DNA of 64,000 nt, from positions 32,001-96,000 of the IMG/VR virus record IMGVR_UViG_3300042862_000066, one strand, 5' to 3'. Numbering within the stretch: the stretch's first letter is position 1; the number at the start of each line of letters is the position of its first letter. Position numbers and translations under genes: made by a program. The notes beneath the pieces were generated by a model. It saw only the letters and a program-made list of their open reading frames with translations, made no database searches and was not told the origin of the DNA. Of this stretch, positions 59,243 through 61,237 are shown piece after piece. Source of the stretch: a virus.

Positions 59243-59316
59243 AAAAAAGTAGGGCCTACATTACGAGCGCGATTCTATCCCAAGATAAAAAGCGTTTGGA
59301 GTAACGTAGACCCTAT
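59241..59316 (-). terminator. Unusually long hairpin + U8 after groES
   Basis: 15-bp basal stem with two G-U pairs only on the minus strand, inner hairpin, then 8 U. Confidence 0.7.
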
Positions 59317-59331
59317 TAGTTAAGGTACTTC

Positions 59332-59622
59332 TTAGTAGACGATTGCTACAGCATGGTCTAGGACCATCATGTAGTCAACTCCATCTAAGCGAACTAATTC
59401 AGCATTAGCTAACATGCTCGCGTTAATGTAAACCTCATCGGTAGGTTTGATATCTACAACCTCGGAGCCAACTGCAAATACAGTAAGGCGAGTCCATTTG
59501 GTCATAATCTCTTTATCTAACTCTGCCTGAACCTCAGGGGTAATCTCGATAAGGGACTTTGTTTCAGATACCGGCTTGGTAACTAAGATGCGTTTACCGC
59601 GTAATTCTTTAAATGCTGACAT
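59332..59622 (-). CDS. groES: Co-chaperonin GroES-like protein
   Basis: LRGKRILV...TKSLIEI (mobile loop)...TVFAVGSEV.DIKPTDEVY...LDGVDYMMVLDHAVAIV. Confidence 0.8.
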   Translation of the reverse strand: MSAFKELRGKRILVTKPVSETKSLIEITPEVQAELDKEIMTKWTRLTVFAVGSEVVDIKPTDEVYINASMLANAELVRLDGVDYMMVLDHAVAIVY

Positions 59623-59644
59623 ATGTTTATTGGTTTAGCTGTGA

Positions 59645-59674
59645 CAAATATATACAAGAATTTGTTACGGGCAA
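59645..59674 (-). promoter_or_regulatory. groES promoter TTG-N19-TATATTTG overlapped by GTGACAA-N14-TTGTTAC
   Basis: caaatata 59645-59652, caa 59672-59674. Confidence 0.65.
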
Positions 59675-59865
59675 GAATTTTTTTTATGCTCCCGCCATTC
59701 CATATAGAATCCAATAGCTACTATAAGGTTCATACCTATAGAAGAAAGTATCTCTACTAGATCATCATAGACATTAATACTAAGGTGGATGTGCCCAACT
59801 GTCCAGAAAGGAATAGCTAGGTTAGAGGATATCCACCTTAGGGTATAGGTAATAAACTGTAGCAT
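59665..59865 (-). CDS. Small membrane protein (66 aa from MLQFIT)
   Basis: Two hydrophobic segments; ATG 7 nt downstream of TATATTTG at 59873-59880. Confidence 0.6.
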   Translation of the reverse strand: MLQFITYTLRWISSNLAIPFWTVGHIHLSINVYDDLVEILSSIGMNLIVAIGFYMEWREHKKNSCP

Positions 59866-59868
59866 CTC

Positions 59869-60540
59869 GTAACAAATATAGCGTAAAATTGTTACCACAC
59901 TATAGTATGATATAACAGTCAAAACCCCTAGTTTTTCTGGTTAATGCATAGTATAACATACTTTAATGTGGTTTATAGGGAACAAAAAACCTGGTTCTTA
60001 TACCCTCTAAGGGATGTTATCATGTGTAGAGAGTATGTCCCGTACCTTCCCGGGTACGTTTCATAGTATAGATGTCAGGATAAACCTGGCACCATTGATA
60101 TGAGATAGATGTTATAAACCACATCTGTCACAAATATGTTAAACTTTTGTGACAAGCTTGATGGGTACTGGAGGGGTACTTGTACGGTTACTTGTGCGGT
60201 ACTTAGTCGCAAGTATAGTAGACTTTTGCGACAGCTATAGTAGAAAATAATCTACAGAATGAGGCTTATAGTGGAAAATAATCCCCAAGGGGTATGCGCT
60301 AATCCGCCATTACTGGAAAATTCTAGGAGTATTGGCGAACTATAGAATGCCAAACTCCGTAACAAAACATGGACAAACTCGGAAGTTCCCCGAATTACCC
60401 CCTATAATTTTGCATGAATTTTTCCAGAAATTACATGCTCCGGCATATAAGAATACCATATACCCCATATCTATACGTAGGGACATATAAGAATGTCAAG
60501 TTTATTGCACAAAAAACTGGACATCCCTACCTAGGGACAA
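59869..60540. repeat. Dense array of heterogeneous 14-33-bp imperfect palindromes and short direct repeats
   Basis: Elements at 59869, 59941, 60041, 60073, 60126, 60206, 60240, 60305, 60412, 60493 and 60524 (see findings). Confidence 0.75.
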
Positions 60541-60710
60541 CATATCCCCAGGGGGAACTAGACAATTCACCTACCCCCGGTAGTAAGGTTCACTGGGATA
60601 CCCCCGGGGGAGAATGGAGGTAGGGGATTTATACCGTAAGAGAGGGGGTAAGGGATCCCTATTGAAAAATCCCCCAGCTTCAAAGCCAAAGGGGGCTACC
60701 CCCCTTGATT
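60540..60710. other. G/C-homopolymer palindrome block at the strand switch (terminus/pac or origin candidate)
   Basis: TCCCCAGGGGGA, CCCCCGGGGG, AGGGATCCCT, AAGGGGGCTACCCCCCTT in an AT-rich genome. Confidence 0.4.
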
Positions 60711-60729
60711 CTAAAAGACTTTGCTAAAA

Positions 60730-60751
60730 CAGTTCTCTCACATTTTATTTT
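60730..60751 (+). promoter_or_regulatory. Early-promoter-like 22-bp motif, copy 1
   Basis: CAGTTCTCTCACATTTTATTTT; ungapped match to 62338, 62433 and 63259. Confidence 0.6.
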
Positions 60752-60823
60752 ATCGTGGTAGAAAAAAAAAGCATCGGGGATGCCCATCTCTGATGGGAAT
60801 AACTAACTTAATACATTAACATC

Positions 60824-61237
60824 GTGAACAACACCATCCTTCCTGGCTTCGGCCACAAGCAAACTGTGATCAACAACCTAGTGATTGACAGTACTACTAT
60901 TAGAACGGCCTATAAGAGCCCTCTATACTATGCGTATGACCATATGATTCACTACGGTATAATGCCTGCGCATACGATGAAGCAGATGACTGCTAACCGT
61001 AAGACGTATAAGAACTACGTGATATTCGGTTGGGCAACTACGGATACAACAGTAGCAGGTAAAGTACGTGATGCAGTATTAGATGCGAAAGCAATGATAT
61101 TGGATATGGAATCTGCAAAGATTAAGATGCGTAACCCTAACTACGAACCAATCTGGTTGTCTATGGCGAAGCATCGCGAAGCAGTGCAAGAGCGTAAGAA
61201 TCGAGAGATGCTTAACAACGACGACTTGCCATTCTAA
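60824..61237 (+). CDS. Hypothetical early protein ending in SSB-like tail DDLPF
   Basis: GTG start after an AT-rich leader; C-terminus MLNNDDLPF. Confidence 0.7.
   Translation: MNNTILPGFGHKQTVINNLVIDSTTIRTAYKSPLYYAYDHMIHYGIMPAHTMKQMTANRKTYKNYVIFGWATTDTTVAGKVRDAVLDAKAMILDMESAKIKMRNPNYEPIWLSMAKHREAVQERKNREMLNNDDLPF

Follow-up and report, generated by a model that had tools for sequence, protein, structure and literature searches.

Introduction

The antitoxins of AbiE abortive-infection systems, which are type IV toxin–antitoxin (TA) systems, control their own operons. According to PMC7319586, the AbiEi proteins of Streptococcus agalactiae and Mycobacterium tuberculosis bind inverted repeats that overlap their own promoter and repress it, the mycobacterial abiE promoter carries four such repeats of graded affinities, and AbiEi binds the inverted repeats as monomers. 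AbiE-type systems are very common in Bacteroidota, yet the way in which they detect infection is poorly understood, as is the way in which phages deal with them. Other phage elements offer points of comparison: phage phiTE reportedly carries pseudo-ToxI repeats that neutralise ToxN, and Aca-controlled anti-CRISPR (clustered regularly interspaced short palindromic repeats) promoters are said to be strong accessory-gene promoters overlapped by repressor inverted repeats. Phages may also place the host LexA (SOS) box on their own promoters. Here, we describe an intergenic locus of a virus in which five palindromes resemble the abiE operators of Bacteroidota. The locus lies in a 64,000-nt stretch of DNA (the window; bases 32001–96000 of the 119,397-bp record IMGVR_UViG_3300042862_000066), and positions given below are those of the window unless stated otherwise. 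An earlier note, made from the sequence alone, had described positions 59869–60540 as a non-coding array of mutually unrelated, operator-sized palindromes that might act as a decoy for host regulators or defence proteins. We judge the chances to be about even that the locus is a conserved non-coding control region whose operator array can be read by host AbiEi proteins.

Palindromes of the phage locus and their counterparts at abiE loci of Bacteroidota

The intergenic region and the five palindromes on which this analysis centers are as follows.

59623–60823, no strand assigned: divergent strand-switch intergenic region of 1.2 kb, flanked by the leftward structural/late block on one side and the rightward early block on the other (from maps of open reading frames, ORFs)
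59641–59668, minus strand: P0, palindrome of 28 bp whose arms are mixed (GTGAC and GTAAC) and which includes a perfect −7 box, TATATTTG, at 59652–59645
59869–59895, minus strand: P1, GTAAC-type palindrome of 27 bp; its leftward −7 box (59880–59873) is perfect and lies 7 nt before the ATG of a 66-aa gene
60127–60153, minus strand: P2, GTCAC-type palindrome of 27 bp; its 9-bp arms are perfect, its −7 box is imperfect, and no ORF follows it
60206–60232, minus strand: P3, GTCGC-type palindrome of 27 bp; its −7 box is imperfect, and no ORF follows it
60493–60524, no strand assigned: H12, the palindrome TGTCAAGTTT-N10-AAACTGGACA (core 60494–60523), a single copy in the phage genome

P0–P3 form one family, GTnnCAA-N11-13-TTGnnAC, with starts at 59641, 59869, 60127 and 60206 and with nn being GA/AA (the mixed arms), AA, CA and CG, respectively. 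The pattern GTnRCAA-N11-17-TTGYnAC occurs exactly four times in the 119-kb genome, and all four sites fall within 592 bp (59641–60232), against 0.195 sites expected from 200 shuffles. A repeat search identified 60127 and 60206 as copies that are 79% identical, with changes matched in both arms. The description of the units as mutually unrelated therefore does not hold for those at 60126 and 60206, which make one family with 59869 and 59641. TAnnTTTG, which we take to be the Bacteroidota −7 consensus, was the motif applied to the boxes in P0 and P1; the boxes of P2 and P3 differ from it by one mismatch each.

A P1-derived pattern with 24 specified bases was scanned against one genome per species, covering 185,579 species and 596 Gb of bacterial DNA. 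There were 19 matching stretches, against about 0.02 expected by our own arithmetic, and 17 of them were titled Bacteroidota. Of the two others, L077 comes from a relative of the phage; this contig is binned in a Chthoniobacter metagenome-assembled genome, and it looks like a related phage contig in having the phage P1 context and the neighboring genes. In 15 of the 19 matches, a DUF6088 gene starts about 20–150 nt from the palindrome. Pfam searches showed that the proteins beside the matches are DUF6088 proteins with weak matches to the AbiEi winged helix-turn-helix (wHTH) models, and that the next gene encodes AbiEii. Among the phage sites, P1 is the best match to these host operator-promoters. 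P2 also has BLAST matches at DUF6088 promoters, in four genomes (G165, G101, G246 and G017).

To obtain an unbiased sample, DUF6088 was searched in 301 Bacteroidota genomes, which yielded 19 genes in 18 genomes. A 26–28-bp palindrome of the form GTnnCA...TGnnAC was present within 130 nt upstream of 16 of these 19 genes (15 in the first pass), and its nn, complementary in the two arms, was CC, AA, CA or CG. The strict pattern occurred at six sites in five host genomes (∼23 Mb) and at none in the reversed control; five of the six were at the start of a DUF6088 gene and the sixth was ∼240 nt upstream of one, i.e., all were at abiE loci. A position weight matrix was built from 15 of the unbiased host sites with nn masked, and its three top-scoring sites in the phage genome were P1 (25.3 bits), P2 (19.2 bits) and P3 (19.1 bits), all leftward and all with complementary nn. 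The next-best phage site scored 12.9, and the maxima of 30 shuffles had a mean of 13.0 and a highest value of 20.2, so that P1 scored above all 30 shuffles. The class of the operator follows the DUF6088 protein tree, with 8 changes compared with 15.6 in shuffles. By analogy with AbiEi, the Bacteroidota palindromes would be the operators of DUF6088 antitoxins and nn their recognition class, and GTnnCAAAT-N9-ATTTGnnAC, with nn as the class, is the likely operator code of this family. Literature searches on DUF6088 and on operator titration by phage genomes found no description of such a code, which is not proof of its novelty.

H12 has the form TGTCnAGTTT-N10-AAACTnGACA and belongs with a different set of host sites. 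When 59866–60730 was compared by BLAST with 401 Bacteroidota genomes, recurrent matches fell at 60485–60530. Of 21 such matches examined, 12 were true palindromes, TGTC[C/A]AGTTT-N10-AAACT[G/T]GACA, and 10 of these 12 lie 25–85 nt upstream of a 241-aa DUF6088 gene (Pfam E 1e-9 to 1e-13), with AbiEii downstream in both of the loci that were checked. In the host genomes, palindromes of both kinds stand almost solely just upstream of DUF6088 genes. The expectation that the units would match operators upstream of host TA or defense genes was thus borne out for three of the ten palindromes listed in the earlier note (60126, 60206 and 60493), and the other listed units gave no host match in the genomes searched. 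A match at host abiE loci was also found for 59869, which was not listed although the interval starts there, and for 59641, which lies outside it.

The phage itself lacks the matching regulator. Six-frame searches of its genome with DUF6088, AbiEi_4 and AbiEi_3_N found nothing at E ≤ 10, and DUF6088 was absent from five related phage genomes, four of which were rated complete. The phage sites are not followed by an abiEi–abiEii operon; downstream are ORFs of 66 and 96 aa. Because the phage carries five abiE-type palindromes without AbiEi, it may be wired into host defense or interfere with it. In a sample of 201 Bacteroidota genomes, 80 had AbiEii genes, and often several each.

Several features of the host loci were observed in addition. 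Host abiE promoters contain tandem arrays of 2–4 palindromes of different classes (GTCAC, GTCGC and GTAAC; loci L102, L091, L073, L087, L089 and L076/L086), and genome G172 (L102) has two DUF6088 genes with different proximal operator classes. Mixed tandem classes suggest cross-talk between AbiE paralogues. In two Rikenellaceae loci (L075 and L078), a GTAAC-type palindrome stands beside a divergent tyrosine-integrase gene, with a DUF6088 gene on the other side in L078, which indicates that the operator-promoter also occurs on integrative elements. Antitoxin genes of other subfamilies upstream of AbiEii have their own, different palindromes.

Phage genes behind P0 and P1

Two leftward genes lie directly behind the boxed palindromes.

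59332–59622, minus strand: first conserved leftward gene, 96 aa; relatives share 55–92% aa identity
59665–59865, minus strand: accessory gene for a 66-aa hydrophobic protein, in an indel cassette, with its ATG at 59865; present in a minority of relatives

In the phage, inverted repeats overlap a promoter box at P0 and P1. The −7 box of P0 is 22 nt upstream of the ATG of the 96-aa gene, with a TTG another 19 nt upstream. Judging from perfect boxes placed just before ATGs, P0 and P1 look like working promoters of leftward phage genes. The cassette of the 66-aa gene is a 206-bp indel with its edges at the right arm of P0 and the left arm of P1, and relatives without the 66-aa gene lack the full P0 palindrome. 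Variable sites in this gene are distributed over the codon phases as 12/28/18 (p 0.034), with the surplus at third positions; no Pfam match was found for its product. P-type palindromes also stand directly before the inserted gene of one relative (L021) and before a phrog_6437 gene in three others (L048–L050).

For the 96-aa protein, Pfam and PHROGs gave nothing, and a GroES/Cpn10-like character (an N-terminal LRGKRILV motif and a middle part like a mobile loop) was noticed by eye only. A strong structure lies directly after the 96-aa gene, at 59250–59330 on the minus strand (z −5.35). This stretch is probably the terminator of the 96-aa gene, in which case the gene would form a unit by itself.

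Conservation in related phages

About 30 related contigs were collected from viral and freshwater metagenome collections by protein-anchored and pattern searches. The order of the units is the same in every relative with enough sequence. The earlier note had expected the units to recur in shuffled order in other phages and had set collinearity beforehand as a refuting outcome; they are collinear in all relatives examined. Some blocks are either wholly present or wholly absent, namely the 66-aa gene, 60047–60097, 60158–60205, 60284–60348 and 60524–60573. Over aligned columns, the non-coding core is 73–86% identical to the window, which is higher than the identity of the adjacent 96-aa gene DNA (65–77%) in 10 of 13 relatives and lower in three (L011–L013).

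Each relative has 1–4 P sites and 0–1 H12 site, H12 being found in 13 of 27 relative sequences. A GTAAC-type P1 with a perfect leftward box is present in all 27 distinct relative sequences, and the arms of P1 are almost invariant in all 19 aligned sequences. The P2 loop is flipped in L004/L016, and many relatives have P3 inverted or fused with P2. Of the P2/P3-type (GTCAC/GTCGC-type) sites in relatives, 22 of 27 keep complementary arms without a perfect box, and three of the five boxed sites point rightward. Flip-flop inversion was observed at two places: the loops of 60107–60126 and 60206–60232 are exactly inverted, with the arms unchanged, in L004, L016, L011–L014 and L023–L028. The same intergenic region has received other genes. 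In L039 (2660–3226, minus strand), a homing endonuclease-like protein with GIY-YIG and HTH_3 domains is inserted beside two adjacent P-type palindromes. The inserted gene of L021 (2493–2924, plus strand) encodes 143 aa with a HEAMH (HExxH-like) motif, has no Pfam match and has its own P-type palindrome before it.

For 91 proposed pairs in 19 sequences, 89.3% of the cells pair, compared with 88.8% after shuffling; double changes occur in three pairs (shuffles, 4.0), and covariation scores 0.029 (shuffles, 0.030). Substitutions in the stems mostly break pairs, e.g., the stem at 60412 is broken in 9 of 17 sequences. With no excess covariation and with inverted loops, the region is conserved as a DNA sequence and not as an RNA structure, and a hairpin RNA was rejected on the basis of the 19 sequences. 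The non-coding status of the locus was confirmed for 59866–60730, where substitutions show no 3-periodicity (p 0.46–0.98). Lacking both base-pair covariation and codon periodicity, the region is neither a hairpin RNA nor coding.

All of the palindromes reported earlier are present in the sequence, with positions that are exact or 1–2 bases off. The excess of palindromes is modest. Perfect inverted repeats (arms ≥ 6, loop ≤ 15) number seven in 59869–60540, whereas dinucleotide shuffles have a mean of 2.95 (standard deviation, 1.74) and 14 of 300 shuffles contain seven or more. With arms ≥ 5, there are 17 inverted repeats compared with 11.6 in shuffles, a number reached by 20 of 300 shuffles. 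In 672-nt windows over the 119-kb genome, the mean is 3.38 and the maximum 10, and 6.0% of these windows have as many repeats as the locus. RNA folding gave z of about −1.2 to −2.3 on both strands of 60000–60450, compared with −4 to −5 for nearby terminator hairpins. Given the modest excess and the mild folding z, about half of the listed units could be due to chance. The array is not a CRISPR, as had been argued, since it contains no common repeat at regular spacing.

Other elements of the intergenic region

The remaining features of the region are listed below.

60107–60126, no strand assigned: short hairpin AGATGT-N8-ACATCT; its 8-nt loop is inverted in some relatives
60163–60204, plus strand: four GGTACTT repeats at 11–12-bp spacing; missing from most relatives
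60236–60283, plus strand: two copies of TATAGTrGAAAATAATC 31 bp apart (60236 and 60267); conserved in relatives
60305–60337, no strand assigned: palindrome CGCCATTACT-N13-AGTATTGGCG; found in 9 of 19 relatives and invariant in these
60398–60704, no strand assigned: C5/G5 runs and CCCC-N0-3-GGGG palindromes in a cluster, which the relatives conserve in varying form
60412–60438, no strand assigned: palindrome GCATGAATTT-N6-AAATTACATGC; inner pairs broken in 7–9 of 17 relatives
60730–60751, plus strand: 22-bp motif common to the early intergenic sites 62338, 62433 and 63259; right edge of the unexplained stretch

Where the loop at 60107–60126 is inverted, the 12-bp long-range inverted repeat (59966/60113) becomes a direct repeat. 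The GGTACTT repeats are not a core element because most relatives lack them, and the host BLAST matches to this stretch fall in coding repeats. Two copies of CAAACTCSG were also noticed by eye in the region.

For the other listed palindromes, the searches of Bacteroidota genomes gave no host counterpart. The 60305 pattern, searched in 401 genomes, had only matches with 2–3 mismatches, in 52 of them, and the reversed control gave a number of the same order, as judged by eye. The 60412 pattern had two matches in 151 genomes, both within a conserved 397-aa ORF; immediately upstream of this palindrome, a perfect rightward −7 box, TAATTTTG, begins at 60405. The units at 60041, 60073 and 60240 were covered by the BLAST search of the region against the 401 genomes only: the matches of 60041 and 60240 are inside ORFs, and that of 60073 is inside a 998-aa ORF. 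The best match to 60069–60113, which falls inside this 998-aa ORF, was taken as chance. No match was listed for 60524 or 59941 in the BLAST search of the region against Bacteroidota genomes. The upstream regions of the 30 best AbiEii loci have other palindromes, none of them like the remaining phage units, and blastn-short gave only a 12-nt match there. These remaining palindromes are either chance occurrences or islands of conserved sequence, and not RNA hairpins.

The interval 60398–60704 contains 10 of the 62 C5/G5 runs of the genome (both strands together), an enrichment of ∼16-fold, and every CCCC-N0-3-GGGG site of the genome falls in the intergenic region. The 22-bp motif reads approximately CnGTTnTCnCnCnTnTTATTTT, followed by ATGCCC; it precedes early plus-strand ORFs and is unlike the TAnnTTTG promoters. 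It is a candidate promoter for early transcription or for a virion RNA polymerase. A scan with the sigma-70 consensus was uninformative (4 sites against 6.2 expected). Terminator-like sites number seven, against 1.5 expected, and three of them are on the minus strand at 60785, 60692 and 60539. Inspection by eye for DnaA boxes gave only matches of 6–7 of 9 positions, which fall within the 66-aa gene or the ATGTGGTTTATA motif. A tRNA search of the region found none, and an Rfam search found no family above chance (nothing below E 0.87).

Genome setting and sequencing record

The phage is a freshwater one, and by its gene blocks and PHROGs its genome has the layout of a crAss-like phage. The minus-strand block extends from 12.4 to 91.6 kb of the genome and contains PHROGs of the portal, large terminase and major head protein in addition to giant ORFs. 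The plus-strand block runs from window position 60824 round the end of the record to 12.3 kb of the genome and encodes a DnaB-like helicase, a DnaG-like primase, a family-B polymerase and a PD-(D/E)XK nuclease. A BLAST search of 59400–61000 for cultured relatives in a phage collection gave zero matches.

Of the 24 sequencing runs listed, 22 are lake-water DNA and two are sediment RNA with small shares. The phage DNA occurs in lake-water metagenome runs, and at least half of the sampled words were present in 16 of the 24 listed rows. Four runs (X23, X24, X12 and X20) have only short contigs of relatives, with unlike flanks. The contigs are uninformative on transcription, strand and ends, and RNA libraries may include DNA, so the coverage of the runs and the gaps in it were not used.

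Discussion

We favor the view that the locus regulates phage genes, in preference to titration of AbiEi or the capture of promoters. A resident host AbiEi of the matching class would bind P0–P3 or H12 in the phage DNA. P0 and P1 would be promoters for the host RNA polymerase, shut or released by the host antitoxin-repressor, and P2, P3 and H12, which keep their arms, are mostly boxless and have no gene behind them, would serve as auxiliary upstream operators, as in the multi-palindrome abiE promoters of hosts. Leftward phage transcription would thereby be tied to the state of several AbiE systems. The phage order, H12...P3–P2...P1–gene, resembles a host abiE regulatory region in which phage genes replace abiE.

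Several points weigh against this regulatory reading. The binding of DUF6088 proteins to the palindromes is presumed from genomic association and from distant relatives, and the Pfam overlap between the DUF6088 and AbiEi wHTH models reaches only E 1e-4 to 1e-5. Because an operator is inherited along with its gene, the clustering of operator classes on the protein tree is no proof of recognition. The phage sites score 19–25 bits compared with 21.9–36.5 for the host sites, one of the 30 shuffles (20.2) beats P2 and P3, and the P pattern was defined after the sites had been seen. The flipping and fusion of P2/P3 in relatives, with 22 of 27 sites boxless, would suit a symmetric binding site and, equally, decaying relics. 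The matches come from sampled Bacteroidota genomes, so that the presence of these abiE classes in the host of the phage is presumed, and this reading does not account for about 600 bp of conserved sequence (60236–60730). The advantage to a phage of having its genes repressed by a host antitoxin is also not obvious.

The decoy idea of the earlier note differs in that the sites would not be promoters: phage DNA present in many copies would soak up several classes of AbiEi and so disturb or disarm AbiE. The matches to host operators and the lack of a phage AbiEi speak for it, as do the gathering of several specificity classes at one place (AA, CA, CG and the H12 type), the kept arms of P2, P3 and H12 with no gene behind them, the predominance of boxless P2/P3-type sites and the free orientation shown by flipped loops. 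The frequency of AbiEii in Bacteroidota also makes a selective pressure plausible. However, we consider a decoy unlikely, with only 1–4 P sites and 0–1 H12 per relative, a fixed order of units, P0 and P1 positioned as promoters, and mixed-class arrays in host abiE promoters too, from which the arrangement may simply have been copied. Moreover, by our reasoning, the titration of an autorepressor should raise toxin and antitoxin together, and the benefit to the phage is not evident. Somewhat less likely again is that the locus consists of captured promoter cassettes without any regulator, in which P0/P1 would be host-type promoters on exchanged fragments and P2/P3/H12 decaying relics. The locus is indeed an insertion hot spot (the 66-aa cassette, the 143-aa gene of L021 and the GIY-YIG/HTH homing endonuclease of L039), P sites travel with gene starts, and the −7 boxes of P2 and P3 are degenerate. 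Relics would nevertheless lose complementarity, whereas nn is still complementary in both arms, and the arms of P1–P3/H12 are kept in relatives whose neighboring gene is at 65–69% nucleotide identity. In addition, the host element is no generic promoter, as all six strict sites in the five genomes are at abiE loci.

A replication origin and/or packaging region, with the repeats as initiator or terminase sites, might coexist with an operator array. Cumulative GC skew turns close to the locus (minimum around 88 kb and maximum around 11 kb of the genome), but it is confounded here by tracking the direction of transcription. Phased direct repeats are present (GGTACTT four times, TATAGTrGAAAATAATC twice and, by eye, CAAACTCSG twice) and C5/G5 runs cluster in the region; of these, the GGTACTT repeats are missing from most relatives. 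According to 10.1101/2024.03.20.585998, crAssphage has a predicted origin at the equivalent place, but neither an initiator gene nor a conserved iteron set was recognised in the present phage. As for packaging, the region lies internally, at positions that differ, in four related records flagged for terminal repeats, and no physical ends are placed here. We therefore regard an origin or packaging function as improbable. A multi-hairpin or long non-coding RNA (ncRNA), like the early intergenic transcripts of phage phi14:2, is the least credible of these explanations, and we give it very little weight. In 10.1101/2020.03.07.982082, phi14:2 is described as having two long intergenic regions, both highly transcribed, close to where its early region starts, and the folding z-scores of our locus are mildly negative; against this, there is no covariation, substitutions mostly break the stems, loops invert between relatives and Rfam has no match.

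A bolder form of the operator-array reading is that a lytic crAss-like phage keeps a library of sites copied from AbiE operators, which belong to two antitoxin subfamilies and span three recognition classes or more, with which it soaks up antitoxin-repressors or reads their state. We think this possible but doubtful. If true, it would be counter-defense or defense sensing at the level of DNA, without a phage protein, and phage genes would switch when the defense fires. Operators without their regulator are a concrete and testable link between crAss-like phages and host defense. If the sites are only captured promoters, the result reduces to a modest observation on how mobile elements and phages exchange promoters.

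Comparison with known systems

In position, the locus resembles the phi14:2 ncRNAs and the predicted origin of crAssphage, since each is a long ORF-free stretch at or near the early boundary; the likeness is one of position only. It resembles LexA control in that the site of a host repressor would stand on phage promoters, and differs from it in its motifs and in that the candidate regulator belongs to a defense system. The Bacteroidota SOS motifs given in PMC8565304 are GGA-N5-TCC and CTAA-N5-TTAG, and LexA-type operators were rejected because neither the 27-bp P sites nor H12 agree with these dyads. As in Aca-controlled promoters, inverted repeats lie on the promoters of accessory phage genes, but Aca is encoded by the phage and the candidate binder here by the host. 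As in the pseudo-ToxI repeats of phiTE, a non-coding phage element copies a component from the antitoxin side of an abortive-infection TA system; phiTE has an RNA mimic of the antitoxin in tandem repeats, whereas the present phage would have a DNA copy of the binding site of the antitoxin.

The closest likeness in sequence is to abiE itself. The abiE promoters bound by AbiEi, as described in PMC7319586, have spaced inverted repeats over the promoter, several of them in tandem, and so does the phage locus. In Bacteroidota, the antitoxin and putative binder is a DUF6088 protein, and the units are 27–31 bp long compared with the 23-bp repeats of that system. Unlike those of abiE loci, the phage palindromes are not followed by an abiEi or abiEii gene. 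At the abiE loci of Bacteroidota, the palindromes lie directly upstream of the antitoxin gene, and it is the sequences of these palindromes that the phage sites match.

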